From assembly GCA_963667315.1 (NCBI GenBank), contig OY763325.1:1989380-2053379 (forward strand): a DNA stretch of 64,000 bases, written 5' to 3'. The notes beneath the pieces were generated by a model. The model had not been told where the DNA came from and did not search any database. It saw only the letters and a program-made list of their open reading frames with translations. This document shows positions 15,181-36,166 of the stretch, piece after piece (position 1 is the stretch's first letter; every line of letters begins with the position of its first letter). Origin of the DNA: an uncultured Thermotogae bacterium. Lineage in GTDB: Bacteria > Thermotogota > Thermotogae > MWEM01. The translations under genes and the position numbers were made by a program.

Positions 15181-15505
15181 TATATCGTTGCTTCTTCATA
15201 TTTCATTCTTTTTTCAACAGATTACCTATCATTTCAGAAAACAACAGAAAGATTTTTCATAAAATCAGTCTCGCTACAAGAGTTTGTATAATAGAATGTC
15301 AATTCGAAATGCAACAAAAAACCCTAATGTTTTACAACACCTTTCACGCAAATATTTGTGAAAAAACATCCACCTCAATCAAATATAACTGAAATCTTCG
15401 AAAGAAAAAACAAATATACTTCGCTATACTAATCAACCCCATTAAATATGATAAAATAGATACTAGCAGGACTAACAAGACTAGTCCGTAAGGAGGGGTG
15501 AAACT

Positions 15506-17811: not shown

Positions 17812-18965
17812 AGACCTTAATGACAAACGTCGTAATTTATCCGATCACATCCACACCGTTCAAAGGTGAGATGCTGGTTGAAGATGGTATCATAAAAGAA
17901 TTAGCTTATAAGGTAAAAGACAGAGAAAATATCGATGACATTATAGATGGAAAAGGTGGCCTGCTGATGCCCGGATTCGTCGACGGTCACAGTCATATCG
18001 GATTGAATCCGGACGGTCTGGGGTATGAATACGATGACACCAACGAATACTCCGATCCCGTCACCTCCAATGTCAGAAGTCTTGACGGTTTTGCACCGAC
18101 AGATATCTCCATCCCCGAAGCGGCAATGGGAGGGGTTATGATCTACTGTGTCCTGACGGGAAGTGCCAATCCGGTTGGCGGTCTCAGCTTTACGGCGCAT
18201 TATTCCAGAGAGAAAAACACCAATGCATTCCTCATCGCTCAGGATACGGGGTTGAAGATGGCAACCGGGGAGAATCCGAAGAGGGTTTACGGTGAACAGA
18301 AAAAGATGCCCGTTACCAGAATGGGAACGGCAGCCGTTATCAGAAAGTTCTTCTTCGATGGTAAGGACTACATGGCAAAGAAGGCAAAGGCTGCAGAAGA
18401 AGGTAAGGACTTCACAGAGCATGACAACAAACTTGAAGCGGCACAGATGGTGCTCGAAAAGAAGATTCCCGCAAGGGTTCACTGCCACAGGGCTGAAGAT
18501 ATCCTTACGGCATTAAGGATCAAAAAAGAATTTGACATCGATATGGTTATCGAACACTGTACGGAATACATCAAGGTCAAGGATCAGATCAAGGAAGCCG
18601 GTGTTCCTATTTTGCTCGGGCCGATCATGTCTTCCAGATCAAAGGTTGAACTCAAGGATATGACCTACAAATCCTACAAGGTTGCACTTGATGAAGGTAT
18701 CCTTTTCGGTTGTATGAGTGATCATCCGGTATTCCCATCGGAAGTCCTCAGACTTCAGGCGGGGATGGCCTGTAATTACGGTGCGGATGAAGAAGGCATG
18801 CTGAAATCACTCACCATCATGCCGGCAAAGATTCTCGGACTCGACGGCGAATACGGGTCCCTCGAGGTTGGTAAAAAGGCAACCATGTGTATCTGGGACG
18901 GTCATCCGTTTGATGCAAGATCAAAGACCATCTGGAACAGCGTGGATGGTTTTATCGACTATTAA
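17808..18965 (+). CDS. Metal-dependent amidohydrolase, paralogue 3 of 3
   Basis: ATGA start/stop overlap with paralogue 2. Motifs are PGFVDGHSHIG and EVGKKATMCIWDG. Confidence 0.78.
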   Translation: MKTLMTNVVIYPITSTPFKGEMLVEDGIIKELAYKVKDRENIDDIIDGKGGLLMPGFVDGHSHIGLNPDGLGYEYDDTNEYSDPVTSNVRSLDGFAPTDISIPEAAMGGVMIYCVLTGSANPVGGLSFTAHYSREKNTNAFLIAQDTGLKMATGENPKRVYGEQKKMPVTRMGTAAVIRKFFFDGKDYMAKKAKAAEEGKDFTEHDNKLEAAQMVLEKKIPARVHCHRAEDILTALRIKKEFDIDMVIEHCTEYIKVKDQIKEAGVPILLGPIMSSRSKVELKDMTYKSYKVALDEGILFGCMSDHPVFPSEVLRLQAGMACNYGADEEGMLKSLTIMPAKILGLDGEYGSLEVGKKATMCIWDGHPFDARSKTIWNSVDGFIDY

Positions 18966-18990
18966 TCGTTAATTTATACCTTCAAATATA

Positions 18991-19017
18991 AGGGCGGAAA
19001 ATCTTTCGCCCTTTTTT
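18991..19017 (+). terminator. Rho-independent terminator of the amidohydrolase operon
   Basis: GGGCG-gaaaatcttt-CGCCC followed by TTTTTT. Confidence 0.7.
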
Positions 19018-19207
19018 AAATGGCCCTAAATTAAGATTCACTAAAAACTAAATACTTCCCACTTGGGTAAACTGATCCCTTTAAACTCCCTTAATTTCAG
19101 CTGCATTCCCCTCATTTCATCCAATCAATACGTTAAAAGCCGCACCCTATAGATACACAACATTATTATTCAAAATTATTTCAATTTATTTTTACATAGC
19201 AAAAAGA

Positions 19208-19236
19208 TTGAATATTCAAACTTAAAATGGTACAAT
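19208..19236 (+). promoter_or_regulatory. Sigma-70-type promoter (TTGAAT-17-TACAAT) for the truncated lipoprotein paralogue
   Basis: -35 at 19208-19213, a 17-nt spacer, and -10 at 19231-19236. Its architecture and sequence resemble the promoter of the 2178-aa gene. Confidence 0.5.
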
Positions 19237-19359
19237 TTAACATAAAAAGATGATAAGAATTCTAAACGAATAAGCGGAAGGGGGAAAGTTAACAGGAAGA
19301 AAGAAAAGATCAAAAGTGAGAAAACAAATAGAAGACAAACTCTGGAGGTTAAAGTGAAG

Positions 19360-19774
19360 ATGAAAAAAAACTGCCGTGATAGCGTTTATGGTGTTACTGT
19401 TTGTATTGACAGCCTGTGTGAAGGAACAGAACATGGTATCGGAAGGCGAGCTGAACAATTTACTTCTTTCTGAATTGAGCGGACATTACACCAGTGAGGA
19501 TTTCACAGATTATGGTCTGTGGTTTTTGACGATAGAGACAGAAGCCTTTTTGGGGAAAATGACAAATTCTGAACAATATGACCTTGAAACGACGGACGGA
19601 ATCTTTGAAATCCGGAAGAATCCGGTGAACGGAAAACAATTAATGTTTTTTTTACCCGAAACCTTCAAGATGACGACAATCTCAACAGTGAAGATTATGG
19701 AACCTTATAGGAGAACGAACGATAATGACATCTTCATCGAAACTGTTTACATCACGAAAGAGGGTAAAGACTAA
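19360..19774 (+). pseudogene. Truncated paralogue of the N-terminal domain of the 1292-aa lipoprotein, out of frame at an A8 tract in the signal-peptide region (or expressed by slippage)
   Basis: ATG 19360 (RBS GGAGG) reads MKKN..., then an A8 run at 19363-19370. With one A fewer the product is MKKTAVIAFMVLLFVLTAC.... This matches MKKTVIVVFVVFSLLFTAC of the big paralogue. The mature region LSELSGHYTSEDFTDYGLWFLTIE...DIFIETVYITKEGKD aligns with residues about 40-150 of the 1292-aa protein and stops there. Confidence 0.6.
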
Positions 19775-20208
19775 CTGAGATGAAGATGGCGGAGGAGCGA
19801 TTAAGACCACTACCCACTCCTTGTGCTGAATGATTGTGTCTTTATATCAAATAAAGTGAATGCTGCCGGTAATATGGCCGATTTTAAAGGACATGGTGGT
19901 GCTTCATTTTTTTGTAAATCTTTATAGAGAAGAATTGGTAATCACAGGGATGGGTTTGAAGTGAACTCGAAACGGATATAAAATAGGAATTGCTAAATTC
20001 TGAAATAATTTGGAACGAATCATAAAACTGTTTGGACTAACGTAAATAAAAAAAACTCCCAAAATCACTTCTGAAAAGCGAAAAGGAATTTTTTCCAATT
20101 ACGAAGCATTTTTTCATAATACCGTACACTTAATACAATGTAATAGTTATTTTTTTAGTTTCGTTTCAAAATAGTAATGATATTGTTTGTTATAACATGT
20201 CAATAAAA

Positions 20209-20237
20209 TTGAATATTTGTTTCTGAGATGGTAAAAT
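20209..20237 (+). promoter_or_regulatory. Sigma-70-type promoter (TTGAAT-17-TAAAAT) for the 2178-aa lipoprotein gene
   Basis: -35 at 20209-20214, a 17-nt spacer, and -10 at 20232-20237. The TTG start at 20284 follows a GGAG RBS. Confidence 0.5.
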
Positions 20238-20283
20238 GAATGGTTGCAGTATAGAATCTTAAACAAAAAAGGAGCAGACGAAA

Positions 20284-23200
20284 TTGAAAAAGAACAGCAG
20301 AATCATCGTAGCGATCATGATAGTAGTGACAATGATATTAGTCCTGACATCATGCGTAAGCCAAAAGAAGCCAAACCAGGCACCGAGCGCGGTGGTAAAC
20401 ATCTACCCTTCACAGAGCGAACTGGTGGATGAGAACTACTTCTACAGCAAATGGACGGCAAGCACGGATCCGGAAGGTGGAGCAGTGACCTATCGCATCA
20501 ACTACGCGCAGACGATAGAAGGACTGGACGACCCGACCTTCTATGAGACGGTGGAGACATACTTTCTGCTGCCGAACCTGGAAGAGGGGATCTGGTACTG
20601 GCGGGTCACGGCGATGGACAAGAACGGAAACAGCACCAGGAGTCCGATCTGGACCTTCACGGTGAACGGAGAGACCTTGCCCCAGCCGGTAGACCCGGAA
20701 GAGATTCCGACAGACCCGTCACTGATCGTGAGTGGAGTGGAAAACACATCCTTCACACTGGACTGGCCTGAATACGAAGACCGGCAGAACCCGGGAAAAG
20801 CGGTAGAATACATCATCTACGTATACGACCAGGGACAGGGAATGAGCACAAGAAACGTTGAAGAAATGGGCTACTGGATGTCACGAATCGCCCCTGCGAC
20901 GACGGCACACACGACGGACACCACCTACACCTTCAACAACATGAACAGCGAGACCTTATACGACTGGGTGATCGTGGCACAGAACAACGCTTCACAAACA
21001 AGCGTGGTAGGAAGCTCACAGGTGAGAACGGGAAACAGAGCGCCAAGCCAACCCGAACTCCTGAACCCGACAGAAGGGGCAACCGACGTAGCCACAGACG
21101 TAACCCTGAGGTGGAGTGAAAGCGTTGACCCGGATGGAGACGCTGTGAAATACTACGTGTACATCGACATGGTAAAAAACACCAACCGAAACGTAACGGT
21201 CGAAGGGATAGACGAGACAGAATACCAGCCGGAAGGACTGGAAGAAGGGCGAACGTATTACTGGTTCATCATGGCAAAAGACGCCAACGGAGCGGCGACA
21301 CGAACACAGACGAACACCTTCATGACCAAAGCGGAAGGAATGGACGTGCCCAACAGCCCGACACCTGGGGACGGAACAGAAGGGATGGACGCGACTGCTC
21401 CACCGCTGTTAGAATGGGAACACGACAAAAACGGGGCACCAATCACCTACACCGTCTACATGAGTGCAAACCCGAAAAAAATAGACAAAAAAGCCGAAGG
21501 GCTGACAGCCAAAAACTACCAGATACCAGGCCTGTTGGAAGGGAATACCAGATACTACTGGGCAATCGAAGCAAAAGACACAGGAACGGACAAAACCACA
21601 CGCAGCGGGGTATGGACCTTCAAAACGGGAACCATCGAAGCGCCGGAACAGACGGAAGCCATCACAAACAGTGACGGGACACAAATAGAACTGACCTATG
21701 ACAAAGCGATGGGAGACCCTGAGGGGAAAAAAGACACCTACACCGTCAAAAAAGAAAGCAGCAACACCATCACAAGCAGAGGCGCAAGAACAGTGACAAC
21801 ATACCGCACAATCGCAACGAGCAAAATAGAAAGAAAAGCTGGAACGACAAACATCTACATTCTTACACTGGAAGAAGCAATAAAAAACGGAGACAAAGTA
21901 TTCATAGACTACACACCGGGAACCGTAGCGAGCACAGACGGCGGGAAACTGGCAAAATACGAAAACAACCCCGTCACCAACCGCGTACCGGGAGCCCTGC
22001 CGGTGTGTACCGCAGCAACCATGACAGCAGACGGCAGAAACGTAGAGCTGTCGTTCAGCCAGGAAATGAAAGCACCGACAGCCGAAGAGGCGAACCAGTT
22101 CGGAATTCTGGTGAACGGATACGTAAACGAAATAGAAGGAGCGACACTAAGTGCAGACAAAAGAGTGATCACGCTGGAACTGGAAAAACCGGTGGGAAAG
22201 AACAACGAAGTGCACGTATCGTACACAAAGGGAACCGTAGCATCAACGGGAGGAACCCTCTTAGAAAGCTTCCAGAACAAAAAAGTGAACACGGACACCC
22301 TTGAGTACATCTGGGTCAACAAAAGCGTGAACTGGAACTACAAGAGCATAAGAGCAGCGATAGACGGAGCAATAGATGGAGATATCATCATCGTGGCACC
22401 GGGAACCTACATAGAAAGCTTTGGTTTTGACGGAAAAGCGATTACCCTGAAGAGTACCTACGAAACCGACACAATGGCAACCGCCACAACGATCATAGAT
22501 GCGCAGCAGCAGGGTCCGATCATGATCTTCAGAAGCGGTGAAGACAGAAATACCGTCTTTGAAGGCTTCACCGTCATGAACGGACATGAAGAGACTTATG
22601 AGACCACAGACAGAAGAGTATCACCATACGGCGGAGCCATCACAATCACAGGGGCAAGCCCGACGATCCGAAACAACATATTCAAAGCCAACAGTTCATA
22701 TAACGGCGGAGCCATCAACGTGAGTGCGGGGAATCCGCTGATCTATAACAACACATTTGATTCAAACGAAGCTGTTTACGGTGGAGCCATCTTCCTGAAA
22801 GCGGAGAACTATTACACAGAAGGCAGAAACACAGCGGAAAAAGAAACGGCAACGATCTATGGGAATACAATCAAAAACAACACGGCGGATAAAGGAGCCG
22901 GAATCTACATAGACGATGAAAGTTACAAAGTGTACAACGCAGCAGGAACAACATGGAAAACCTTCAATGCCCCGAATGCGGCAATCACATTTGTAGAAAA
23001 CGCAACGGAGAAGAATAACACCTACAGCGGAAATACAAGACAAGAGAGAAGTGAATCAAGAACGGAGACATTGGAAGGAATAGACATCTACTACTACTGC
23101 GAAGAAGAACTTGAAACACCGGCGGGAACACTGACACTGAGACCGCAGACGGCTTACGAACAGAGTGTTGTGAGCCTGAATCTGGACTACACGATCGGAA

Positions 23201-26200
23201 GCGAATATCATAATGGATTTGTCGAATTCATATTGACGGACACAAACGGAGACTGCTTTGAGATCACGGAAGGCGCTTCCGTCATCATCAATGGACAGAC
23301 AACTCCGATCACAGATTCCGATTATTACTACACTGCAAAAAATGCCATTATTACGGGACTCAAACTGGAAGAAGGAACTGTCACATTGAGATTGACACCA
23401 CAGGAAACGCCGGCGGGAACGACAACGAATCTCATAAACGCAAGAGATATCAACTATGAGATAAGTGCCAAAGGGGACGCAGATGGACTGGATCATGTAT
23501 GGACAGACAGTACAACATCCACACAAAACTTCCTGTCAAATGCCCTGTCGATCGTGACGGATATAGCCTACAAAGAGGGAAACGAACTGTATGTCAAACT
23601 GGAAAGCACCCCAAAGAGCCTGATAGTGGCCAGTGAGACAACGGTAAACGTTGTGCTCTCATCCATAAAGGCGACGGATGACTCGAGCCAGACGTATGAG
23701 ATCATCACGGCCGCCGGAACACAGACGGGAACGGACGAACTGACGGAAGCAGCAACGCTGATCGTGACGGCGGAACACGGCAACAAGGCAGCTTATGCCA
23801 TAACGATCAACCCGACGAGATTTGTGAGACTGGAAACGAATACAAATACAAGTGGGAGCAGACTCATCAGCAGAACCAATCCACAGGTAACGCTCACGAG
23901 CTGGCATGGCAGAATCACAGACGCAGTGGACCAGGCAGGAGAGACAAACCAGTCAACGATCACGGTATGGCCGGGAACTTACATGGAAAATGTTGACCTC
24001 GGTTCAAAGGGAATCCATCTGATGAGCACGGAACCGGCGAGCAAGACCGTGAGAGAGACGACGATCATCGATGCGAATTACGAAGGAAGTGGCGTAAGCG
24101 TCTACCAGAACACGGGAGCGGTGATCATCGAAGGCTTCACGATCACCCATGCGGGATATGCACACCCGACAAGCAGCAGAGGAGATTCACCGGCAGGAAT
24201 ATCCGTGAACAGGGGAAGCGCTATCATCCGAAACAACATCCTCACAGCGAATGGAAATGAAACCGAAAACAGTGGAGCCCCCGGAATCAGTGTGGTGTTG
24301 TCGGAAACGACGATCAACAACAACACAATCACGAACAACTACAACGTGGACGAAGGAGCGGGAATACATCTGGTGATCGGAACGAGTACCGTCTACGCCA
24401 ACAGCTTCACGGGAAACAAGAGTGAGGGAAACGGTGGGGCAATAGTCATTGGAGAGGAAACAAGATATAGTATGGCGAGAGACGCTGAAAACGACACCAA
24501 AGTAACCGTTTACGGCAACAGCTTCACGAACAACGTGGGAGACAAAGGTGGTGCGATAGCGGTATACGAAGACGCAACGCCTTACAACAAGGCAGGGGAA
24601 GCGTGGAGAGCGTTCAACATGCCGGGAGCGACGACGACGTTTGTAGAACATAACGCCGATACAGAAGACAACAACACGTACTCTGGCAACAGTCTGAACG
24701 AAGACTTCAGCAGTTCAAGAGACGGCGTGGAAGAATCAACGGACATCTGGTTTGCCGGAGAAATAAAATCGACAGCGGGAACACTGGACCTGTCACCGGC
24801 AACGGTGACGGGAGATGCGGGAGAGCAGATCACGCTGACGGCGACGTACACGCTGGATTTCCCGGCATGTAACGGAGCGGTTGGCTTCGCGGTTCCGGAG
24901 CCGTTTAAGCTGACGCAAGACGCCTCAATTACAGTAGGGGGTAAAACGGTAGAGACAGACAGAGTGTTTTTCCTCGATGCTAAAACGGTCGCAATAGTGG
25001 GCATCAACTGTACGGATACACAGACAGTTGCGCTGGCCTTCAACTACACACCGGCCACACAGATGGACGAAGACGATTATGTCGTAGGTACCCGTATAAA
25101 TGTAGACGGAACGGGAACGAGATACACGGAGTCGGACTTTACCTATGCCACAATGACGATACCGCCACAGTATGCGGCTCCCGAAGTGGCGGTAAAAACA
25201 CCGGTTGGTATTGAACTGGAAGCGACAACGACGGTGACGTTCACGTGGGAAGCGACGGCAGGGACACAGACAAATGCTATCGCAAGAGAAGAAGCGGGAA
25301 TAGCCGGATACGTGGTGGCGTTTGCGGACAGAGACGGGAACTGGGCGAGTGCGACGGTGAACGACGGCAACACGAAGAGCTACGCAACGGATACCCTTGT
25401 CTATGGACAGGATTACAGCTGGCATGTGAAGGCGATCGGTGCCAACGGCAAGACGGCGACAACGACACCGGATGCGACGTTTATTACGGCCTACAGGTTG
25501 AGAGATCTGGGGAGTGAAGGGGTTGCCTACACGCTTGAAGACGATACGAACTTTGACTGTTACGAGATAGCCTTCGACAGTAAAGATCTGCCGGGAAGAT
25601 TTGACGGGATGACGGAATTTCAGATAAACGTCAAGGGACAGACGTACAAGTTTGGGCAGAATGAATCTAACCCGACACAGTATAACGTTCAGATTCCTCA
25701 TAGCGTCGGAACGCCAGATGATCCAACGATGGATGAGGTCAGAGACGGGTTCTTTGGGGAGTCTAAAATCAAAAATGTTTCCTTCGCTCAGGGGGAAACA
25801 ACCGCAGAATACGATACGATAGCTGAAGCGGTAGCAGCCGTTGATGACGCTGAAGGACAGGCAACAATCACCCTGAAGGAACCAGAGTATATTTTTACTG
25901 AAAGAATAAACCTTTACAGTGCAGCACCCATTACGATCATGGCGGCAGAGGGTGTAACACCGGTAATAAACGGAAACGACACGACACAGCTCTTCTACAA
26001 TTTCACTCAGGATTCTGCGACAGTGACGTTTATAGGCATCACCTTCAGCCACGCAAAAAGTGGGGTTGCAGGAGCGGCAGTTATATCCAATGCGTCGATG
26101 AAGTTCGTTGACTGTACTTTCAGCAACAATTTGGCAAGTAATCATGCCGGAGCGCTTTATCTGAATTGGGGCTCCTTTGTCATCAAGAACTGTCAATTCA

Positions 26201-26820
26201 ACGATAATTCATGTGGAAGCTCCTCTTGGGGTGGTGCTTTGAACTGTGCCGATAATGCAATATCTCTAAGCATAATTGAATCCACATTTACAGCAAATAA
26301 TGCCTATCGAGGTGGCGCGTTGTATATAGGAAATGCGGATACGGTAGAAATAAAGGATTCTTATTTTGATTCGAATACAGTTACCGGAAATGGAGGCGCT
26401 TTATATCTTGAACAGAGTGAAAATACAGATGTTACCATATCCGGAACGACCTTCACTTCAAATACGGCAACGAATACGAATAACGATGGTCCAACAATAA
26501 CAGTCGGATATGGCGGAGCACTCTATTTAAACTTAAATACTGCCATAGAGATCACCAGTGCGACCATCATAGATAATGCCGCGGGTAAATCAGGTGGTGG
26601 AATTTATATTCTGAGACAAGACGGTTTTACGGGAGCGCCGAAAACGAGTGGCAATTCATGGTGGTACAATAGTGTGGGTGTTCCCTCATCGTTATATTCT
26701 CAGGATAGTGATTTTTCAATAGACAAGAATGGTCAACGTATTTATCCTTGTAGGGAATCAGATCCCGTGGTTGTGAAGTTAAACACAGCACCATCGTATC
26801 GATCGTATTGCATTAATTAA
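20284..26820 (+). CDS. Giant surface lipoprotein (2178 aa): lipobox signal peptide, three to four FN3-like modules, three right-handed parallel β-helix blocks, C-terminal module with Pmp-like GGA[IL]/FxxN repeats
   Basis: The signal peptide is MKKNSRIIVAIMIVVTMILVLTSC. Repeated modules of about 100 aa contain W(T/S)ASTDPEGGAVTY-type motifs. β-helix repeats include GGAITITGASPTIRNNIF..NGGAINV. The C-terminal block has FTSN/FDSN/FTAN alternating with GGALYL/GGAIYI. Extensive paralogy to the 1292-aa gene, for example ITINPTRFVRLETNT...TITVWPGTYMENVDLGSKGIHLMSTEPASKTVRETTIID. Confidence 0.85.
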   Translation: MKKNSRIIVAIMIVVTMILVLTSCVSQKKPNQAPSAVVNIYPSQSELVDENYFYSKWTASTDPEGGAVTYRINYAQTIEGLDDPTFYETVETYFLLPNLEEGIWYWRVTAMDKNGNSTRSPIWTFTVNGETLPQPVDPEEIPTDPSLIVSGVENTSFTLDWPEYEDRQNPGKAVEYIIYVYDQGQGMSTRNVEEMGYWMSRIAPATTAHTTDTTYTFNNMNSETLYDWVIVAQNNASQTSVVGSSQVRTGNRAPSQPELLNPTEGATDVATDVTLRWSESVDPDGDAVKYYVYIDMVKNTNRNVTVEGIDETEYQPEGLEEGRTYYWFIMAKDANGAATRTQTNTFMTKAEGMDVPNSPTPGDGTEGMDATAPPLLEWEHDKNGAPITYTVYMSANPKKIDKKAEGLTAKNYQIPGLLEGNTRYYWAIEAKDTGTDKTTRSGVWTFKTGTIEAPEQTEAITNSDGTQIELTYDKAMGDPEGKKDTYTVKKESSNTITSRGARTVTTYRTIATSKIERKAGTTNIYILTLEEAIKNGDKVFIDYTPGTVASTDGGKLAKYENNPVTNRVPGALPVCTAATMTADGRNVELSFSQEMKAPTAEEANQFGILVNGYVNEIEGATLSADKRVITLELEKPVGKNNEVHVSYTKGTVASTGGTLLESFQNKKVNTDTLEYIWVNKSVNWNYKSIRAAIDGAIDGDIIIVAPGTYIESFGFDGKAITLKSTYETDTMATATTIIDAQQQGPIMIFRSGEDRNTVFEGFTVMNGHEETYETTDRRVSPYGGAITITGASPTIRNNIFKANSSYNGGAINVSAGNPLIYNNTFDSNEAVYGGAIFLKAENYYTEGRNTAEKETATIYGNTIKNNTADKGAGIYIDDESYKVYNAAGTTWKTFNAPNAAITFVENATEKNNTYSGNTRQERSESRTETLEGIDIYYYCEEELETPAGTLTLRPQTAYEQSVVSLNLDYTIGSEYHNGFVEFILTDTNGDCFEITEGASVIINGQTTPITDSDYYYTAKNAIITGLKLEEGTVTLRLTPQETPAGTTTNLINARDINYEISAKGDADGLDHVWTDSTTSTQNFLSNALSIVTDIAYKEGNELYVKLESTPKSLIVASETTVNVVLSSIKATDDSSQTYEIITAAGTQTGTDELTEAATLIVTAEHGNKAAYAITINPTRFVRLETNTNTSGSRLISRTNPQVTLTSWHGRITDAVDQAGETNQSTITVWPGTYMENVDLGSKGIHLMSTEPASKTVRETTIIDANYEGSGVSVYQNTGAVIIEGFTITHAGYAHPTSSRGDSPAGISVNRGSAIIRNNILTANGNETENSGAPGISVVLSETTINNNTITNNYNVDEGAGIHLVIGTSTVYANSFTGNKSEGNGGAIVIGEETRYSMARDAENDTKVTVYGNSFTNNVGDKGGAIAVYEDATPYNKAGEAWRAFNMPGATTTFVEHNADTEDNNTYSGNSLNEDFSSSRDGVEESTDIWFAGEIKSTAGTLDLSPATVTGDAGEQITLTATYTLDFPACNGAVGFAVPEPFKLTQDASITVGGKTVETDRVFFLDAKTVAIVGINCTDTQTVALAFNYTPATQMDEDDYVVGTRINVDGTGTRYTESDFTYATMTIPPQYAAPEVAVKTPVGIELEATTTVTFTWEATAGTQTNAIAREEAGIAGYVVAFADRDGNWASATVNDGNTKSYATDTLVYGQDYSWHVKAIGANGKTATTTPDATFITAYRLRDLGSEGVAYTLEDDTNFDCYEIAFDSKDLPGRFDGMTEFQINVKGQTYKFGQNESNPTQYNVQIPHSVGTPDDPTMDEVRDGFFGESKIKNVSFAQGETTAEYDTIAEAVAAVDDAEGQATITLKEPEYIFTERINLYSAAPITIMAAEGVTPVINGNDTTQLFYNFTQDSATVTFIGITFSHAKSGVAGAAVISNASMKFVDCTFSNNLASNHAGALYLNWGSFVIKNCQFNDNSCGSSSWGGALNCADNAISLSIIESTFTANNAYRGGALYIGNADTVEIKDSYFDSNTVTGNGGALYLEQSENTDVTISGTTFTSNTATNTNNDGPTITVGYGGALYLNLNTAIEITSATIIDNAAGKSGGGIYILRQDGFTGAPKTSGNSWWYNSVGVPSSLYSQDSDFSIDKNGQRIYPCRESDPVVVKLNTAPSYRSYCIN

Positions 26821-26875
26821 TCAGGAATAGAGTTGTAGAACGGGAACCAACGTTTTAAATAAAATAAATTTTCAA

Positions 26876-26912
26876 GAGGAAGAGCAGGCGAAATCCTGCT
26901 CTTTTGTCTTTG
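26876..26912 (+). terminator. Rho-independent terminator after the 2178-aa gene
   Basis: AGAGCAGG-cgaaat-CCTGCTCT followed by TTTGTCTTT. Confidence 0.65.
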
Positions 26913-26959
26913 GATAAGGATTAAAAGACAACTGAGCATATTGTAGATAAGAATGGAAA

Positions 26960-27180
26960 GGTGACGCACACACAGATGAATGTATTCAGGAGGCTCCGTG
27001 GTGATCTGTGTGTGGTAGAAAATCCAACATCGGCGGATGGAGGCAAAGAAATAGGGCTGGTTCATCCACCCCTTATGAGCTGGGAAACGGACAAAAACAG
27101 TGGGGCGATTAGCCTGGGACAAAACAATTCCGAACGGGCAGGAATACAAATGGCATGTACAGGCAATTGGCGGAAATAGA
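26960..27180 (+). pseudogene. Decayed, frameshifted fragment of an FN3-like module related to those in the giant lipoprotein
   Basis: One frame gives ...HPPLMSWETDKNSGAISL..., compare PPLLEWEHDKNGAPITY in the big gene. A +1 frame gives EYKWHVQAIGGNR*, compare DYSWHVKAIGANG. DNA-level similarity to 21405-21440 is visible. There is no plausible start or RBS. Confidence 0.5.
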
Positions 27181-27185
27181 TAAGC

Positions 27186-27224
27186 AAAAAGGCGGTCTTT
27201 TTCAAGACCGCCTTTTGTGTTTTT
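27186..27224 (+). terminator. Rho-independent terminator directly after the decayed fragment
   Basis: GGCGGTC-tttttcaa-GACCGCC followed by TTTTGTGTTTTT. Confidence 0.7.
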
Positions 27225-27504
27225 AGGGAAACTATTTGATTCGTATCATATAGAAATACATCGATATTTCAGTGATAAGTTGCAGAAAAACATAATATAA
27301 ATACGCCTTGTCGTAAGGCACTTCACAACCTATACAAAGTAGAAGTTAAGAAATAATTTTTCTTACTGTGAATTATTCTTGCAGATAACTCAAAAAAACG
27401 GATACAATTGTATTTTTGATAATCGTAATATTGCTGTGTGATCTAAACACTGTGTTTTTATTTTATAAAATCAACTTTATTGTTTTTTTTATATGACACT
27501 ACTG

Positions 27505-27533
27505 TTGATAATTCAACATAGAAGTGCTATAAT
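27505..27533 (+). promoter_or_regulatory. Sigma-70-type promoter (TTGATA-17-TATAAT) for the 1292-aa lipoprotein gene
   Basis: -35 at 27505-27510, a 17-nt spacer, and -10 at 27528-27533. A purine-rich 5'UTR of about 115 nt resembles the UTR of the truncated paralogue. Confidence 0.6.
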
Positions 27534-27654
27534 CAATTCTGAATAACATAGTTAGAAAACAAAGGGAACAAACTGAAAAAGACAGTAAGTTCGAAGGAGA
27601 AAAAATAATAAACAAAGATAAACGATAATGATAAGGAAACATTGGAGGGTAAAG

Positions 27655-30600
27655 ATGAAGAAAACGGTAATAGTTGTATTTGTAGTATTCTCGCTTCTGT
27701 TCACGGCATGTGTACAGGAACAGAAAGTGACAGCCGAGACCAGCCTGCCAAAAGTGCTGGAACTGAGCGGACTAAGCGGACAATATGAGGTAGAAGATTA
27801 CACGGATTATGGACTGTGGCTTCTGACGATAGAGGCGAATGCACTGACGAACAAGGTGGCTGATGCTGATACTTACTACCTTGAGACGGAAGGAAATGTG
27901 TATGCAATTCAGAGGAATCCGTTGAACGCAGGACAACTGATGATCTTTTTACCGGAACACTTCGTCATTGAAAACCTTTCAAGTGCAAAAATAACGATGG
28001 AACAGATAGGACAGTCAGGGAGTAGAGGGGACAACGACGATATCTTCATCGAAACCGTCTACATTACGAAAGACGGGAAAGAGTATGAGCTGACACTGGA
28101 GAATTACCTCTTTATGAAACAAGCGTCAAAAGACACGTTTGTGTACGCAGACGGAAAACTGCTGCGCCCAGATTATGTAAAGAGCAGTGACGGGTACACG
28201 TACAGCATGCAGAGCTACTACAACGCCCGACAGGTATCGGAAGATCACGATGTGAACGGCGCGTTTTCCTTCCTGAAAAAGCTTGAGAATTACGAGAGCT
28301 ATGTCTACGTAAACAATCCATATCGTGCGAAGATAGAAGAAGGAACAGTTGCCGTCTACGATCCGGACACAAGAGACAGGGTCTGGGAGCTGGGGGCTAT
28401 GGGTGCCATAGATGAAGCGGCGACATACACCTACGACATCGCAGATAACAGTAATGCGCAGACACTGACGCTGACGATCAAAGAAGAGAATTTGCCGACA
28501 AAATATAATCAAAGTGGAGAATATGAAATACAGTTCAAGGATGATGCGACCGTATGCAGTTTTGTCAACAGAAGCGGGAACTTGTATGATTGTGTGATTG
28601 AATATGCCATAACCGATAACGTTGATCTGATAAAAAATGCAAGATTCAGTGAGGCCAGTAACGCAACGCAGACGGATATCAGGCTGAAAGGGGTAAATAA
28701 AGCCTATGCTCTGTTAATCACAGACCCTGCAACCGTGTTGAAAGTGGCAAGCGGCACTACCGTTGCACAGATGAAGAGTTATCTTGAAGCGGTGGATGGA
28801 TCAAATCAGACCTATACCTTCAAGACGACGGATGGAAAACTGTCGAATGCCTCAATTCTGACAAAAAACGGAACACTGACAGTAACCTCTGAATATGGGG
28901 AACCATACATTGCTCAATTTGAGATGCGGGTGAATCCGACGCCGTTTGTGAGACTGGAAACGACATCAAAAATCATCTGGCACAACACGATAGGCGATGC
29001 CGTAACAGGCGCATCCGAATCAGATTATTCAACGATCACCGTTTGGCCTGGCTTGTACCGTGAAAACATCACTTTTGGTTCAAAGGCCATTCATCTCATG
29101 AGCACGGATCCGGCGAGTGAGACGGTAAGAAATACGACGATCATAGATGGAATGTCAAACGGTAACACCATTCTAATCGGGAATCTCGCCGGTGGCAGTA
29201 TGGAACGAGACGGTTCTGAAGAACAGACGATCGTTGAAGGCTTTACCCTTACGGGTGGCGCATCAGTCTTATCGCCGACATCACAAAGGGCGGATGACTC
29301 CGTTCTGGGAATGATTTCGGCAGCAGTGGCAGTAAACAGAGAAAAAGCCATCATCCGAAACAACCTCATCACCGGAAACGGAACGGATACCGGAGATGGG
29401 ATGAGCAACCTGTCAGGTTGCGGTATCATCAGTGAGTATGCCACCTCAACCGTATACAGCAACGAGATTCGAAACAATTACAATGTGTTGATAGCAAGTG
29501 GTGCGGCGGTTGCAAACGGAACGGCTGAAATATACGATAATCTCATCACACAGAACACCGGAAATATGGGCGGTGGAATTCTGGTCACCAATCTGGAAGA
29601 AACGGGCGTTTCGTCGAGAGAAACTACTGATGAAACGGTGGCAAAAATCTACCGGAACACCATCAGTGAAAATACCGCAGGAGTTAGTGAATATATCCCA
29701 GGAGACGGAGCGGGAATATATATATATAAAGGCTGCAGCATTCTGAATGCAAATGGGGAAAAATGGAGGCATTTTAATTCACCGGCGGCAAGCATTGAAT
29801 TCGTCGAAGGTTCACCGGCAGAACAGAGAAACGTCTATCAGTCAAATGCCATAAACACGGGATCCGATCAGGGGACCGATATCATGTACGACGAATCCGA
29901 AGAAACTCCTCCGGGAACCCTTGAAATCTCACCAGTAACAGTTCCGGAAGGCGATCTCTTCACCTTAACGGCAACGTACACCTTTGCAGGACCGACCTGG
30001 GAAGGTGGCGTTGAATTGGATTCAGCGGGCGATGTGACACTGGCATTCTTTGATCTGGATACCGCCTCTGTGACCATAGGAGATGGGGAGAAGAGACTTC
30101 TGACGGCTGATGAGAAATTCTCTGCTTATACTATTCAGATCGAAGGGATCACGAGTGAAGCGGCAACGAAAGTGGTGTTTCAGATTTGCAGGAAGTCAGA
30201 TACAGCTATGCCTGCAAAAGCATATACGCTAAGAGCCATACCGGATGCCGATGGTGGATCGGGGAGTGCTTATGGCAACACACAAACGGGAATAGCCTCC
30301 TCGGAGCTAACAATAAAAGTTTCTGGACCGGTTTCTTTTGCACAGGGTGAGACGACAGCAGAGTATGATACGATACAAGCAGCAGTAGCAGCCATCAGCG
30401 GAACAAGTCCGGCCACCCTCACGCTGAACAACGATTTGTACCGGGAAGGATCACAGATAGAGCTGTCATTCTGTCCTGCATTGGTAACGATACAGGCAGC
30501 AGAAGGTAAGTCACCGGTTATAGACGGTGAGGAACAATACCGTCCGTTTAGCTTGACGAACTCTCCAACCGTTACGTTTAAGGGAATTACCTTTACAAAG

Positions 30601-31506
30601 GGATATTATGAACTTACAGATGGAGAAGATGGTGGTGGAGCAATCAAGGCATTTAATACACCGCTTGTTTTGAATGATTGTGTGTTCACATCAAATAAGG
30701 TGAGAGCTGCTGGTGGTGAGGACGATTATGAAGTCTATGGACATGGGGGTGCCATTTATTCAACATACGCTACCCTTATCTTGAATGATTGTACCTTTAC
30801 GTCAAATGTGCTGCACAATGCTAGTTATTGGACTCCTGTTTATGGGGCTGCTATTTCCGTTCAAACGATGGATTTTTTAAATATTTCCAGCTGTGAATTT
30901 GATTCAAATCATATGATCATTGATGATCTGAATAACACAAGCGGATGTGGTGGCGCTGTCAATGCGGATTATACAGATTTAACGGTAATTGAGTCCTCAA
31001 CTTTCACCGGCAACAGCGCAAGTGGTGATTTTGCCGGTGCCGTCAGAATTTATGGTGAGACCTCCGGAGGGGATTCGGTTAAAATCCGCAACAGTTCATT
31101 CACTTCAAACAGTTCCATTGGTCCCTGGAGCGGTGGTGGTGCTTTGGCACTTATGAATATGTCTGGAGCAAGCGAGATTTCCGATTGTGTTTTTGACTCC
31201 AACGAAACGAATAAAAATGGTGGTGCCATCTATATACACACTAAAAATGATTTTGAAATCACAGACACCGTTATAAAAAACAACAGTGCAAATCAAAATG
31301 GCGGGGGAATCTATTTGTATTATACAAACGGGAGTGATATAACAACCGGAGGCGTCAAATGGGGGCTTGGTGCAACTTCATTGAATAACGCTTTCTCAGT
31401 CTCTTCAAATGGTACTTATCATGCAACGGCCAATTCGGATGATTCGGTTTATATCACCGGGAACACGGCGGAGAGCGGTAATTCATACACTGGAGTAACC
31501 AATTAA
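27655..31506 (+). CDS. Giant surface lipoprotein (about 1283 aa), paralogue of the 2178-aa protein: lipobox signal peptide, unique N-terminal domain, β-helix blocks, C-terminal Pmp-like repeat module
   Basis: The start was moved to MKKTVIVVFVVFSLLFTAC, with a GGAGGGTAAAG RBS. Shared modules with the 2178-aa protein include VNPTPFVRLETT..., VSFAQGETTAEYDTIQAAVAA and FTSN...GGAIY repeats. Confidence 0.85.
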   Translation: MKKTVIVVFVVFSLLFTACVQEQKVTAETSLPKVLELSGLSGQYEVEDYTDYGLWLLTIEANALTNKVADADTYYLETEGNVYAIQRNPLNAGQLMIFLPEHFVIENLSSAKITMEQIGQSGSRGDNDDIFIETVYITKDGKEYELTLENYLFMKQASKDTFVYADGKLLRPDYVKSSDGYTYSMQSYYNARQVSEDHDVNGAFSFLKKLENYESYVYVNNPYRAKIEEGTVAVYDPDTRDRVWELGAMGAIDEAATYTYDIADNSNAQTLTLTIKEENLPTKYNQSGEYEIQFKDDATVCSFVNRSGNLYDCVIEYAITDNVDLIKNARFSEASNATQTDIRLKGVNKAYALLITDPATVLKVASGTTVAQMKSYLEAVDGSNQTYTFKTTDGKLSNASILTKNGTLTVTSEYGEPYIAQFEMRVNPTPFVRLETTSKIIWHNTIGDAVTGASESDYSTITVWPGLYRENITFGSKAIHLMSTDPASETVRNTTIIDGMSNGNTILIGNLAGGSMERDGSEEQTIVEGFTLTGGASVLSPTSQRADDSVLGMISAAVAVNREKAIIRNNLITGNGTDTGDGMSNLSGCGIISEYATSTVYSNEIRNNYNVLIASGAAVANGTAEIYDNLITQNTGNMGGGILVTNLEETGVSSRETTDETVAKIYRNTISENTAGVSEYIPGDGAGIYIYKGCSILNANGEKWRHFNSPAASIEFVEGSPAEQRNVYQSNAINTGSDQGTDIMYDESEETPPGTLEISPVTVPEGDLFTLTATYTFAGPTWEGGVELDSAGDVTLAFFDLDTASVTIGDGEKRLLTADEKFSAYTIQIEGITSEAATKVVFQICRKSDTAMPAKAYTLRAIPDADGGSGSAYGNTQTGIASSELTIKVSGPVSFAQGETTAEYDTIQAAVAAISGTSPATLTLNNDLYREGSQIELSFCPALVTIQAAEGKSPVIDGEEQYRPFSLTNSPTVTFKGITFTKGYYELTDGEDGGGAIKAFNTPLVLNDCVFTSNKVRAAGGEDDYEVYGHGGAIYSTYATLILNDCTFTSNVLHNASYWTPVYGAAISVQTMDFLNISSCEFDSNHMIIDDLNNTSGCGGAVNADYTDLTVIESSTFTGNSASGDFAGAVRIYGETSGGDSVKIRNSSFTSNSSIGPWSGGGALALMNMSGASEISDCVFDSNETNKNGGAIYIHTKNDFEITDTVIKNNSANQNGGGIYLYYTNGSDITTGGVKWGLGATSLNNAFSVSSNGTYHATANSDDSVYITGNTAESGNSYTGVTN

Positions 31507-31805
31507 CCCGGAAGAAATGAAACTGTTTTTAAAATGAGAAAAAAGAACTTTTTATATCAACAGCTATCAAGAAAGTGTTTTCTGAGTTCGTTGTTGTTTT
31601 AATCTATTATTGGGGGTATTTATTTGGTTTTTCAGCAGCCATAACTTATAAACCGTTAATAAGAAACAATGATTATAACTTATAGTCCATATTCGGGATG
31701 TTAATATTAAAATTTACTTATAAAGGAATCAAAAAACAGCAGTGAAATAACACCCTGCTGTTTTTCATTTATTCAAATATTAATCATTCAGTCACAAAAT
31801 GCGCT

Positions 31806-32015
31806 TCAATTCTTCTCTGCATTTCTCAGACAATCAAATGGATTATCGACGCCGATCAAACCGACACCATCCTCATAGAATCCATCAACTACATATCCGG
31901 AAGATGCTTCCGCCAAAAGCCTGCCAAGTGAACCGCTCGCGTAATCACCTGTATAGAATTCTCCTGGGCTGTTATCAAGGTCTGGCAGTAAGTTCTTAAA
32001 GGCATCTGAAAACAT
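31806..32015 (-). CDS. Hypothetical small protein (69 aa), doubtful
   Basis: ORF only, with no convincing RBS. It lies directly downstream of the CoxM-like gene. Confidence 0.2.
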   Translation of the reverse strand: MFSDAFKNLLPDLDNSPGEFYTGDYASGSLGRLLAEASSGYVVDGFYEDGVGLIGVDNPFDCLRNAEKN

Positions 32016-32024
32016 TGCTCAAGC

Positions 32025-32831
32025 CTATTTCAGCTTTAAAAGACTCCTTTTGACAAACACCTTCAGAAGTTCTTTCCTGTATTCACCGGAAAGATCAAAT
32101 CCGTCAGAAACACTCGCCTTTTCAGATATGTTCGCCAGCATTTCAGCTTTATTTTTTAATTCCTCAACGCTTTTCCCCTTCAACGCTTCTTCGAGTATAT
32201 TGAACCGTACGGCAAGTCCCGGACGTGCCCCATAGGCTGCTCCGGCTTCTTTTACAACACCCTCTGCAATTTCTGCGCAAAGGTAAAAATTCAGCTGCGA
32301 GACATCATAATCCGTCTTCGTCATATGCTGAAAAACGCCAAAATTGAACCGGGTATCGAAGAGAATTGACAGGATGATGGGTTTGGATTTCCCATGCAGA
32401 TAGTCTTCGAGGGAAACGATTCTTTCTTCACCGTCGTATACTCTCAAAGATGCCTTCAGAGCCAGGAAAAGCGTCACAACATCCGACCAGCCGTATTTCT
32501 GTGCAATAGAACCGGAGATGGTGGACATATTTCTGATCTGATTGGTTCCGACTTTTTTCAAAACCTGCGTAATCGAATGACCGTCCATATCATCGATGAG
32601 CTCGTTGATCTTCATCCCGCCACCGATTTCAAATTGACTATCCGTTTCAATCACGGAATCGGGAAGTACATGCTGTATATCGATGAGGATTTCTGTTCGC
32701 TCATCTTCTCTCAAGGCGGTTGAAACACCCCCGGAGGTAAAAAGTGCCTTTTCCCTGTTGTTCATGTAAAGGTCCCATGCCTGTTCAAGGCTTTGTGCTC
32801 TGACATACGCTTTAAGATTCTGAAGCATCAA
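32025..32831 (-). CDS. FAD-binding subunit of molybdopterin-dependent dehydrogenase family (CoxM/XdhB-like; FAD_binding_5 + CO_deh_flav_C)
   Basis: 268 aa. It has the N-terminal ...FTSGGVSTAL...IDIQHV... pattern of CO-dehydrogenase flavoprotein subunits. No large Mo or small Fe-S subunit genes are adjacent. Confidence 0.6.
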   Translation of the reverse strand: MMLQNLKAYVRAQSLEQAWDLYMNNREKALFTSGGVSTALREDERTEILIDIQHVLPDSVIETDSQFEIGGGMKINELIDDMDGHSITQVLKKVGTNQIRNMSTISGSIAQKYGWSDVVTLFLALKASLRVYDGEERIVSLEDYLHGKSKPIILSILFDTRFNFGVFQHMTKTDYDVSQLNFYLCAEIAEGVVKEAGAAYGARPGLAVRFNILEEALKGKSVEELKNKAEMLANISEKASVSDGFDLSGEYRKELLKVFVKRSLLKLK

Positions 32832-34680
32832 AATAACCCCCTTTTAATTCCACCTGATGATCCGGTATATAGGCATCAAGCGTCTTTTTCATGTCATTTT
32901 TGTCTCTGCAGATACACAGATCATACATCTTTTCCATCAAACCCGCTATCTCTTCAGGAGACATATGCTCTTCTTCAATCACCCGGTATATTTTCGGATT
33001 CTTCGTTGACAATGCCTTTTCCTTATCAAGGAAAAGTTCCTCATATAGTTTTTCCCCCGGTCTGATACCGGTATACTGAATCTCAATATCCTGCCCCGGA
33101 ATCAACCCGGCAAGTTTTACCATGTTGTCCACAAGATCCTTGATATAAATCTGTTCTCCCATATCCAGGATAAAGAGATCCCCGTTCTTCATAAAGCTGG
33201 ATGCCTGAATGACCAGTGAAGAGGCTTCCGGTATCGTCATAAAGAAACGTCTCATATTGGGATCCGTAATGGTAATCGGTCCACCGTTTTTAATCTGTTC
33301 CTTGAATTTGGGAATAACGCTTCCCCTGCTGCCAAGAACGTTCCCGAATCGAACAACGGAAAAGATCGTTCCCCGGTTCTTATTTGCAACGGCTCTGAGA
33401 TACATTTCCGCCAGCCTCTTGGAAGTGCCCATGATAGAGGTGGGATTAACCGCTTTATCCGTTGAGATGAGTGTAAAACGTTCCACGCCGTGCCTGACGG
33501 CAATATCCACCAGTTTCTTCGTTCCCATGGAATTAACCCTGAAGGCTTCCGACGGATTTTCCTCCATCAGCGGAACGTGCTTATGCGCCGCACAATGATA
33601 GACCACCTGCGGTTTATGATCTTTGAACAATCGATCAACGGCTTCCTCATTCGTGATATCGGCGATGATTCTGACAAATTCTATCGCATTCGCTTTGAGC
33701 AGGGGGGCGAATTTCCCGGATATCTGATAAATACTGTTTTCTCCTCTGCCAAGTGCCACGATTTTCTTCGGTTTCATAGCGATTAGCTGCTTGGTGATCT
33801 CACCACCGATACTGCCGCCCGCTCCGGTTATGAGTATCGTCTTGTCTGTATTGGCAGCTTCCATCTCTTTCAGATCTATTCTGACGGGATCTCTTCCCAA
33901 AAGGTCTTCAATGGCAACATCACGAACATGTTCCGTTCTCACCTCATCTTCAAGCATCTCGGAAATTGAGGGCAAGACCTTCAAATGAACCGTCTTGAGA
34001 TCAATATGCGAGGTGATGATCTTCATCTGGGCTGAATCGGCACTTGGGATGGCAACGATGATCTCATCAAGCCCCTTTTCACTGATAATCCTGTTCACAT
34101 CGGCGATAGGACCCATAACCGGAACCCCTCTGACATTTCTCCCGATCTTTCTCCTTGAATCGTCAATAAAGACTTCTACCTTCATCCCGCGGTTTCGCTT
34201 TCTGATATCTTCAAGCAGCATGATCCCCGCCTCGCCGGCACCCATGATGCCTATTCGGCGTTCAACATCCCGGCCTTTTTTCTGATACTTTCTCCGGACA
34301 TACCAGCTCCACCATATTCGGCTCAACAGGACGGCAAAAGCCCCCCCGAGAAACTGCATGATGCCAACGGAACGCGGCATGACAAAGGGAAAGACCAAAA
34401 CCACCAGCAGATTCATGAAATAGGCAACGGCTATACTCTTGAAGATCTGAACGATCTCATCATTCCCCATATAAGCCCAAACGGTCTTATACACCCCAAA
34501 AAGGAAGAAGGAAAGACTGGCTACACCGGATGCAATTAACACTGCCGGAAAATAATTCCCGATTGAGGCAAAATCCCAGCCGAATCGAATAAAAAGGGAA
34601 AGGATTCCGGCACACAACATCACTGTAAAATCGACTGTCACTAAACTGATTCTTCTCAACATATAACGCTTTCTCACCAC
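32812..34680 (-). CDS. Membrane-bound polysaccharide biosynthesis protein, CapD/PglF/WbpM-like UDP-sugar 4,6-dehydratase
   Basis: 622 aa. The N-terminus has four TM helices. A Rossmann motif ILITGAGGSIGGEI and the short-chain dehydratase core are present. Confidence 0.85.
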   Translation of the reverse strand: MVRKRYMLRRISLVTVDFTVMLCAGILSLFIRFGWDFASIGNYFPAVLIASGVASLSFFLFGVYKTVWAYMGNDEIVQIFKSIAVAYFMNLLVVLVFPFVMPRSVGIMQFLGGAFAVLLSRIWWSWYVRRKYQKKGRDVERRIGIMGAGEAGIMLLEDIRKRNRGMKVEVFIDDSRRKIGRNVRGVPVMGPIADVNRIISEKGLDEIIVAIPSADSAQMKIITSHIDLKTVHLKVLPSISEMLEDEVRTEHVRDVAIEDLLGRDPVRIDLKEMEAANTDKTILITGAGGSIGGEITKQLIAMKPKKIVALGRGENSIYQISGKFAPLLKANAIEFVRIIADITNEEAVDRLFKDHKPQVVYHCAAHKHVPLMEENPSEAFRVNSMGTKKLVDIAVRHGVERFTLISTDKAVNPTSIMGTSKRLAEMYLRAVANKNRGTIFSVVRFGNVLGSRGSVIPKFKEQIKNGGPITITDPNMRRFFMTIPEASSLVIQASSFMKNGDLFILDMGEQIYIKDLVDNMVKLAGLIPGQDIEIQYTGIRPGEKLYEELFLDKEKALSTKNPKIYRVIEEEHMSPEEIAGLMEKMYDLCICRDKNDMKKTLDAYIPDHQVELKGGYFDASES

Positions 34681-36146: not shown

Positions 36147-36166
36147 TTTATAACCCCCAATGGTTG

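Follow-up and report, generated by a model that had tools for sequence, protein, structure and literature searches.

The stretch analysed here (the window) comprised 64,000 nucleotides of contig OY763325.1, from an uncultured Thermotogae bacterium, and the subject of the analysis was a pair of genes, A and B, encoding giant putative lipoproteins; both genes, together with the modules and gene fragments described below, lie on the + strand. Gene A (20284..26820) encoded a protein of 2178 amino acids (aa) from a TTG start with AGGAG 8 nt upstream, and was identical to P0231. Gene B (27655..31506) encoded a 1283-aa protein from an ATG with GGAGG 6 nt upstream, and showed 100% identity to P0001; its reading frame was open from 27628 (27628..31506, 1292 aa), public gene calls begin at the ATG at 27655, and this was the probable start. 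Both open reading frames (ORFs) were as described in the initial annotation, and the lipobox signal peptides proposed there were found in both proteins.

The signal peptide of A (20284..20355) ended in the lipobox LTSC (Cys24; ILVLTSC followed by VSQ) and that of B (27655..27711) in FTAC (Cys19; LLFTAC followed by VQE), as judged by a PROSITE-like rule. The PS51257-like lipobox pattern was satisfied not only in A and B but also in nearly every complete member of their protein family: it was kept in 12 of 14 and in 15 of 16 family members, the exceptions having N-terminal Met starts and looking truncated. By this motif, lipid would be attached to A at Cys24 and to B at Cys19.

A and B were genuine paralogs, but only over part of each protein. 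With B in the 1292-aa numbering, blastp aligned A 1034-1626 with B 279-896 (34% identity, 3e-79) and A 1832-2175 with B 902-1287 (32% identity, 2e-36). All the shared motifs quoted in the initial annotation were present in A and B respectively: INPTRFVRLET and VNPTPFVRLET, TITVWPGTYMEN and TITVWPGLYREN, GSKGIHLMSTEPASKTVRETTIID and GSKAIHLMSTDPASETVRNTTIID, and VSFAQGETTAEYDTIAEAVAA and ..IQAAVAA. The two genes were separated by a strong terminator-like hairpin (27187..27216; 13-bp stem, then a T run) plus a promoter-like site upstream of B (27505..27533; TTGATA, 17 nt, TATAAT, with a TG extension; 11 of 12 matches). The coding strand of gene A (20001-26000) had a very strong A-over-T skew (AT skew 0.30-0.39), and the GC content of the gene was 0.495, vs. 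0.434 in the rest of the window; both features were consistent with a composition rich in Thr, Asn, Gly and Ala, and are no indication, alone, of a foreign origin.

The order of the modules in A was mapped by blastp, Pfam and NCBIfam. The N-terminal array of FN3 modules previously noticed in this protein corresponded to four FN3 domains (aa 26-460; 20359..21663; fn3 PF00041, 5.7e-16, 58.9 bits, 4 stretches), the only matches in PDB sequence searches being to FN3 domains (ephrin receptor, titin). These were followed by two SWM/TIGR02059 immunoglobulin (Ig)-like repeats (aa 461-665; 21664..22278; PF13753 SWM_repeat, 5.8e-15, 55.7 bits), with TIGR02059 scoring 41 bits vs. a cut-off of 40.1. Of the two proteins, only A had the fn3 plus SWM_repeat stalk above cut-offs. 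The same repeats build the SwmA-type, TIGR02059 “cyanobacterial long protein repeat” giant surface proteins, but in A they made up only a short part of the stalk (two repeats, compared with four to six in its paralogs), and a link to motility was unsupported.

Beyond its stalk, A contained a first right-handed β-helix (aa 666-935; 22279..23088; PF07602 DUF1565, 23.3 bits, cut-off 20.3), a BslA-like Ig domain (aa 936-1075; 23089..23508; BslA E 0.004, under the cut-off), a small α/β linker domain homologous to B 341-425 (aa 1076-1165; 23509..23778; 40% identity), a second right-handed β-helix (aa 1166-1495; 23779..24768; 37% identity to the β-helix of B, 7e-53; 34% identity to the first β-helix of A), and a second BslA-like Ig domain (aa 1496-1640; 24769..25203; BslA 29.1 bits, under the 38.7 cut-off). 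The second β-helix carried the motifs INPTRFVRLET and TITVWPGTYMEN, together with the cap motif W..FN.P....FVE. The remainder of the chain consisted of an FN3/Ig_Rha78A_N-like domain (aa 1641-1740; 25204..25503; PF25788, 31.4 bits, cut-off 27.4), a domain designated X (aa 1741-1835; 25504..25788) homologous to the first subdomain of the head of B-type proteins (hhalign probability 85%, E 5.9e-6), and a terminal Pmp-type β-helix (aa 1836-2178; 25789..26817; PF02415, 47.9 bits, 3 stretches) of about seven rungs of 27 aa (GGALY...FxxN).

B was simpler. A head domain (aa 21-340; 27715..28674), without match in Pfam or to any PDB fold, was followed by the linker domain (aa 341-425; 28675..28929; 40% identity to the linker of A), one central right-handed β-helix (aa 426-765; 28930..29949; assigned by blastp to A, an alignment of 16 copies, the AlphaFold2 model and Foldseek against BFVD), one BslA-like Ig domain (aa 766-890; 29950..30324; Pfam BslA E 0.001, under the cut-off) and a terminal Pmp-type β-helix of about eight rungs (aa 891-1283; 30325..31503; PF02415, 41.3 bits, 3 stretches, together with the repeat layout and the model). 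The Ig domain resembled the BslA fold of Bacillus subtilis (PF17735; 4bhu, Foldseek TMt 0.58-0.63), and one family protein (on L001) exceeded the BslA sequence cut-off with 45.4 bits; against this, the Pfam scores of the A and B domains were 17.6-29.9 bits vs. 38.7, and in the PDB comparison cohesins and Cna-type collagen-binding adhesin domains matched the Ig domain of B about equally well.

The structure of B 341-1283 was predicted with AlphaFold2, as the initial annotation had recommended (mean predicted local distance difference test, pLDDT, 79.6). The model showed a triple-strand periodicity and a short-strand β-solenoid pattern; the β-solenoid was judged from this strand pattern and from the Foldseek matches of the model, not from its coordinates. 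Foldseek against BFVD retrieved viral right-handed β-helix, pectate-lyase-superfamily and tailspike proteins (E 1.5e-7 to 1e-4), the clearest single match covering 351 columns with a root-mean-square deviation of 6.0. Against the PDB, the Ig domain dominated the result of the multi-domain model, and matches to the β-helix were weak only. A phage tailspike or prophage remnant was considered and rejected: the lipobox was present, A and B had no match in the PHROG families, the context was chromosomal and there were no phage genes around.

The alignment of 16 central β-helices defined an N-cap (W..I..A..., STITVWPGxYxE, K.I.L.S, TIID), an EGFT rung and an invariant C-cap (W..FN.P....FVE), after which ..N.Y..N and EG.DI make the transition to the Ig domain; the invariant columns were mainly Asn, Gly and Ile ladder positions plus these cap motifs. 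PF13229, suggested in the initial annotation as a test for this fold, did not match A or B; the Pfam evidence came instead from PF07602 on the first β-helix of A and from a profile of 11 central modules, which retrieved 192 proteins (best 4.8e-66), most of them with PF13229, PF05048 or PF07602. Because of these families, the central module belongs to the broad NosD/DUF1565 (CASH) class. The 192 proteins came from other phyla (among them Planctomycetota, Delongbacteria and metagenome-assembled genomes, MAGs, of Ignavibacteriaceae), and many had type IX secretion system (T9SS) or dockerin tails. NosD, DUF1565 and PF13229 proteins share with the central helices of A and B the N-terminal motif ..I..A...a..GdtI.v.PGtY.E and the Asn ladders, but they are mostly single-helix proteins of ~450-650 aa with T9SS, dockerin or PKD tails; the helices of A and B differ in their family-specific C-cap, in conserved [ST]xxR loops and in that a BslA-like Ig domain almost always comes next.

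These [ST]-x-x-R loops (SSER, SSSR, SMAR, TSQR and similar) occurred at three equivalent positions in every central β-helix module (22279-23088, 23779-24768 and 28930-29949; e.g. B residues 512-516, 541-546 and 652-656), with the Arg kept in 14 of the 16 copies, and coincided exactly with the low-pLDDT segments of the AlphaFold2 model. They could form a ligand-binding line of Arg residues, or be processing or modification sites. A sulfatase-type C/S-x-P/A-x-R motif was rejected, the spacing not fitting.

The C-terminal repeats alternating FxxN and GGA[IL], described in the initial annotation as typical of chlamydial Pmps, were far more frequent than in composition-preserving shuffles (n=2000). 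A had 10 copies of GGA[ILV] and B had 5, vs. 0.22 and 0.16 in the shuffles (0 of 2000 shuffles reached the count in either protein), and FxxN occurred 5 and 6 times in the terminal domains of A and B respectively, vs. 1.3-1.4 expected (P = 0.008 and 0.001). The terminal domains were made up of 7-8 units GGA(I/L)Y...(I/L)x(I/V)xx(S/C)xFxxN, with a GGA-to-GGA spacing of 27-28 aa in the regular part. This rung length equals the minimum given for chlamydial Pmps, 27 residues (PMC10715098), and the AlphaFold2 strand pattern agreed with it. PF02415 (Chlam_PMP) scored 37.4 bits in A and 36.2 bits in B as whole proteins, and 47.9 and 41.3 bits in the isolated terminal domains, in all cases above the cut-off of 20.6. 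A and B are therefore non-chlamydial proteins above the PF02415 gathering score; the family is present in more than 100 non-chlamydial species (PMC10715098).

The likeness to autotransporter passengers held for the β-helix and the Pmp-type rungs, but not for the export apparatus. Neither the C-terminal ~300-aa autotransporter β-barrel PF03797 (threshold E <= 0.1 for whole proteins and E <= 1 for terminal domains) nor the Pmp middle region PF07548 was found by Pfam in A or B, both chains finished ~70 aa beyond the last rung, and the predicted lipid anchor was N-terminal, so an autotransporter identity was rejected. Compared with chlamydial Pmps, A and B share the paired FxxN and GGA[ILV] motifs in predicted β-helical rungs of ~27 aa, and membership in an expanded, polymorphic multigene family; they differ in the missing barrel and middle region, in the reversed topology with a predicted N-terminal lipid anchor, in the number of rungs (7-8 vs. 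9-25), in their free-living Thermotogota host, and in having the Pmp-type domain as just one of many modules. Most family members (e.g. P0233, P0235, P0011 and P0008) shared a C-terminal tail, ...W......N.FSV...G......D(S/P)V.(I/V).DN........QM.(F/W/Y)..., which was degenerate in A (26740-26817) and B (31420-31503) and might cap the β-helix at its C-terminal end or act as a signal for sorting or attachment.

At least nine intact members of the family were present on the same 3,981,887-bp contig, amounting to ~18,900 codons: A, P0232 (2430 aa), P0233 (2845), P0234 (2826), P0235 (2342), P0236 (1814), P0024 (2410), B and P0011 (805). Proteins of the window were identical to proteins of this contig, and their cluster mates at >=90% identity bear the name “Thermotogota bacterium”. 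A nine-member family of lipoproteins of 800-2800 aa thus takes up ~1.4% of the coding capacity of the genome. The FN3 array of A was 86-96% identical, at the protein level, to those of six other A-type paralogs of the same genome, and the signal peptide of P0232 was identical to that of A; identity fell to 54-58% in the SWM repeats and to 24-80% in the β-helix, Ig and Pmp modules. This gradient, calculated from protein identities, fits gene conversion of the 5' stalk combined with distal diversification.

Orthologs of A or B were not found outside the source genome among 5.8 billion proteins, none exceeding 41-70% identity: the closest match to B was 41% identical over 82% of its length, and the closest matches to A were 45% identical over 74% of its length, or 68-70% identical over the stalk only. 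The contexts of three homologs (P0002, P0006 and P0240) were all different and lacked conserved operon partners; a conserved operon was rejected, since the neighbours differed at every homolog locus. P0006 (2040 aa, without signal peptide; L005 8442-16123) had two nearly identical tandem cassettes of linker, β-helix and Ig domain, and a 506-aa fn3 gene lay immediately before it; a frameshift or a stop has probably split a single A-type gene of ~2550 aa into these two. In a related strain, a cluster of four family genes was located at L014 1-15772 (JGI 3300042269, Ga0451652_000006, 87294-113065), encoding proteins of 806 aa (head and Pmp), 721 aa (head and GLUG), 1169 aa (head, linker and further modules) and 1923 aa (FN3, ~6 SWM repeats, β-helix and Ig); therefore, family genes tend to cluster. 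An IstB/IS21-type gene lay a few kb from this cluster, which by record coordinates was ~35-60 kb away from L006 on the same contig.

Comparison with related strains by blastn delimited a strain-specific island of 13,060 bp (18983..32042) holding A, B and gene fragments. L006 7594-11175 aligned with window 15402-18982 (97.9% nucleotide identity) and L006 11972-21158 with window 32043-41229 (97.8%); where the window has the island, L006 has 796 bp with a gene for a 207-aa GNAT acetyltransferase, which was not found in the window. The same GNAT arrangement was present in the gene tables of L007-L010 and L012, i.e. in at least six contigs of ~98%-identical strains including L006. The ends of the island were marked neither by direct or inverted repeats nor by genes for tRNAs or recombinases, Rfam found nothing in the window, and a reverse transcriptase of diversity-generating retroelements (DGR), a recombinase and invertible repeats were not found within the island.

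The fragments mentioned in the initial annotation were resolved by tblastn into three decayed pieces, all inside the island. Upstream of A, a truncated B-type fragment with a lipobox and the first ~140 aa of the head (19364..19774; 46.8% to B 2-142, 7e-30) was directly followed by a fragment of a Pmp-type terminal β-helix (19820..19909; 66% to B 1004-1035), and an 82-nt DNA repeat linked 19815-19896 with 30659-30740 (74% identity). By these alignments, the two pieces are the remnant of a B-like gene with an internal deletion of ~2.6 kb. Downstream of A, a decayed FN3 fragment (26940..27113) matched residues ~333-390 of A-type proteins (39-45%, down to 1.7e-9). A 132-aa ORF in the head fragment opened at a GTG at 19376; at 19360-19376, an ATG at 19360 was out of frame through a run of eight adenines (A8), and A7 would restore MKKTAVIAF...; slippage at this tract, an error in sequencing or plain decay could each account for it. 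The fragments, together with the absence of the island from ~98%-identical strains, show the locus to be evolving fast, as had been proposed.

The head domain of B was not restricted to β-helix proteins. A profile of eight heads retrieved only 78 matches among 1.84 billion representative proteins, nearly always at residues ~20-345, directly behind the lipobox. Among 38 full-length members, the partners of the head were GLUG (12), divergent InlB B-repeats (7), the M26 N-terminal region (5), fn3 (4), FGE-sulfatase (3), SLH (2) and Beta_helix (2), and also included leucine-rich repeats (LRR; BspA type), subtilase and carbohydrate-binding modules (CBMs). A scan of 185,579 species-representative genomes with the head alignment found one locus, in a Thermotogota MAG, encoding a 1698-aa protein with two heads. 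The AlphaFold2 model of the B head was moderate (pLDDT 61.5 overall, ~85 for residues 30-120), and with this model no fold match was found in the PDB. The partner pattern suggests that the head is an N-terminal anchoring or stalk module displaying interchangeable cargo.

Considering these results together, A and B probably, though far from certainly, belong to a multigene family that is confined to one lineage, recombines rapidly and encodes giant envelope proteins with a lipid anchor; the distal right-handed β-helices of these proteins, including the Pmp-type ones, would serve as adhesin-like binding surfaces. The proteins would be exported via the lipoprotein signal peptide and held by the N-terminal lipid on Cys24 or Cys19. 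The proximal stalk would be formed by the four FN3 and two SWM Ig-like domains in A and by the ~320-aa head in B; it would bear one or two cassettes of linker, NosD/DUF1565-like right-handed β-helix and BslA-like Ig domain, with the 7-8-rung β-helix of 27-aa Chlamydia-Pmp-type GGA[ILV]/FxxN rungs at the tip of the chain. The distal β-helices might bind glycans, other cells or particles without catalysis. The family would diversify via duplication, module swapping and deletion, the 5' stalk being kept near-identical, probably by gene conversion; the pair A and B forms an accessory 13-kb island of this strain only. The initial annotation had considered both proteins candidate major surface adhesins or polysaccharide-binding proteins; “major” does not suit accessory proteins absent at this site in ~98%-identical strains, and a function in adhesion or glycan binding is proposed here from architecture.

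Several points weigh against this interpretation. Localisation, expression and binding are all predicted, and the gene conversion is deduced from protein identities. Many polysaccharide lyases and hydrolases, as well as phage depolymerases, likewise fold as right-handed β-helices, and an alignment of 11 central modules contained a few invariant charged residues (E, K, D, E and R). In addition, the periplasm of T. maritima is ~70 nm wide and its toga consists of a lattice of protein interspersed with patches of lipid (PMC10160955); from typical domain sizes, we estimate that fully extended A would reach ~55-60 nm, and if anchored in the inner membrane it might only span the periplasm, unexposed. 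Because of these two lengths, the exposure of A depends on which membrane holds the lipid anchor.

The fold and the charged residues would also fit if A and B were envelope-tethered polysaccharide-degrading enzymes (lyases, hydrolases or epimerases) feeding a fermentative Thermotogota cell, with β-helices catalytic as in pectate lyases, GH28 and GH55 glycoside hydrolases, AlgE epimerases and phage depolymerases. In T. maritima, an amylase and a xylanase are associated with the toga (PMC3387000), the PDB list from Foldseek included a GH55 laminarinase and a Klebsiella phage depolymerase with weak scores, and the central-module profile gave marginal PDB matches to a pectinesterase (E 0.051) and to the mannuronan C5-epimerase AlgE4 (E 0.053). 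None of these PDB matches was significant, however, and glycoside-hydrolase, lyase or other catalytic families were not found in A or B by Pfam or NCBIfam (E <= 0.1-1). The conserved charged residues sat in the N- and C-caps (PGxYxE, TIID, FVE) and not in a mid-helix groove, sugar transporters and glycosidases were not found beside A, B or their homologs, and up to three β-helices per chain in nine paralogs fit binding or variation better. A catalytic role was thus considered unlikely.

The same nine paralogs, homogenised at the 5' end and divergent in their distal parts, could instead constitute a surface-variation system, in which paralogs and promoter-less fragments are exchanged by gene conversion and the epitopes vary, e.g. 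to escape phages or grazers using them as receptors, adhesion being secondary. The strain-specific island, the three fragments beside intact genes, the A8 run at the start of one of them and the cluster of family members close to an IS21-type gene of a related strain are in line with such a system; but at 30-140 aa and with 39-66% aa identity to A or B, the fragments were short and diverged, resembling deletion remnants and not a silent cassette array, and the island lacked the recombinase, DGR reverse transcriptase and invertible repeats that were searched for, which makes this distinctly improbable as the primary function. Very improbable, finally, is a purely structural role, with A and B as struts across the periplasm or as sheath proteins attached to the toga. 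Rigid modules and a predicted lipid anchor at the N-terminus would fit this role, and the estimated length of A is near the 50-70 nm of the periplasm and Ompα spacer of T. maritima; nevertheless, a structural part should be conserved, while A and B have no close orthologs in protein databases and are absent at the same locus in ~98%-identical strains, and neither SLH nor another wall-binding domain was found in A or B by Pfam.

The proposed lipid-anchored binding proteins have an architectural counterpart in the adhesin-like proteins of the methanogens Methanobrevibacter and Methanosphaera (PMC11532034), large modular envelope proteins in which a membrane anchor and Ig-like domains are combined with between one and several right-handed β-helices and, now and then, with Chlam_PMP repeats. 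They also have many paralogs per genome, and adhesion is likewise inferred for them; the likeness considered here is one of architecture, and the archaeal proteins differ from A and B in their anchor, in their Ig families (ABD) and in lacking a lipobox. Pmp-type repeats outside Chlamydia and adhesin-like proteins with multiple β-helices were already known. What is new is the Thermotogota family itself, its predicted reversed anchoring (N-terminal lipid vs. C-terminal barrel), the fixed cassette of linker, β-helix and BslA-like Ig domain, the head and X domains, and the strain-specific island in a genome with nine paralogs.

Apart from Ompα, Ompβ and some hydrolases, little is known of the decoration of the toga (PMC3387000, PMC10160955), and a family varying between ~98%-identical strains is a candidate for attachment to particles or partners and for envelope proteins under diversifying pressure. 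Pmp-type rungs predicted to be displayed from an N-terminal lipid anchor, and not from a type V barrel, also bear on how such β-helices are folded and displayed. The previously unannotated head domain is now defined and could enter domain databases. A broader and rather doubtful extension is that the ~320-aa head and the X domain represent an undescribed envelope-anchoring or stalk module peculiar to toga-bearing and related uncultured bacteria, with swappable cargo (Pmp-type β-helices, GLUG, InlB-B, LRR, subtilase, FGE-sulfatase or CBM), and that a family with homogenised 5' stalks, accessory islands and fragments would reflect recombination-driven surface variation in a free-living, non-pathogenic, deep-branching bacterium.

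None of the neighbouring genes of the island was related to A or B: those upstream encoded amidohydrolases, and those downstream resembled CO-dehydrogenase flavoprotein and CapD genes. The upstream genes (15506-18965) were three consecutive, partly overlapping members of the amidohydrolase family (379, 460 and 385 aa) kept in all related contigs, and the one adjoining the island (17808-18965) occurred in identical form on 12 metagenome contigs. Upstream of the three genes there was another break in the synteny with the ~98%-identical strains, at window position 15402 (L006 7594), to the left of which the window has MatE and RNase H-domain genes vs. GntR, Cys/Met-metabolism and GH31 genes in the other strains; this is a second strain-level rearrangement near the island. 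Further downstream, at 44690-51037 on the - strand, a gene for a 239-aa SLH protein, which may be a short Ompα-like wall anchor, adjoined genes for a 1524-aa bacterial α2-macroglobulin and a DUF1175 protein in an envelope-related cluster, and at 52544-54283 the window encoded an [FeFe]-hydrogenase large subunit with N-terminal ferredoxin-like domains, which fits a fermentative, hydrogen-producing lifestyle.

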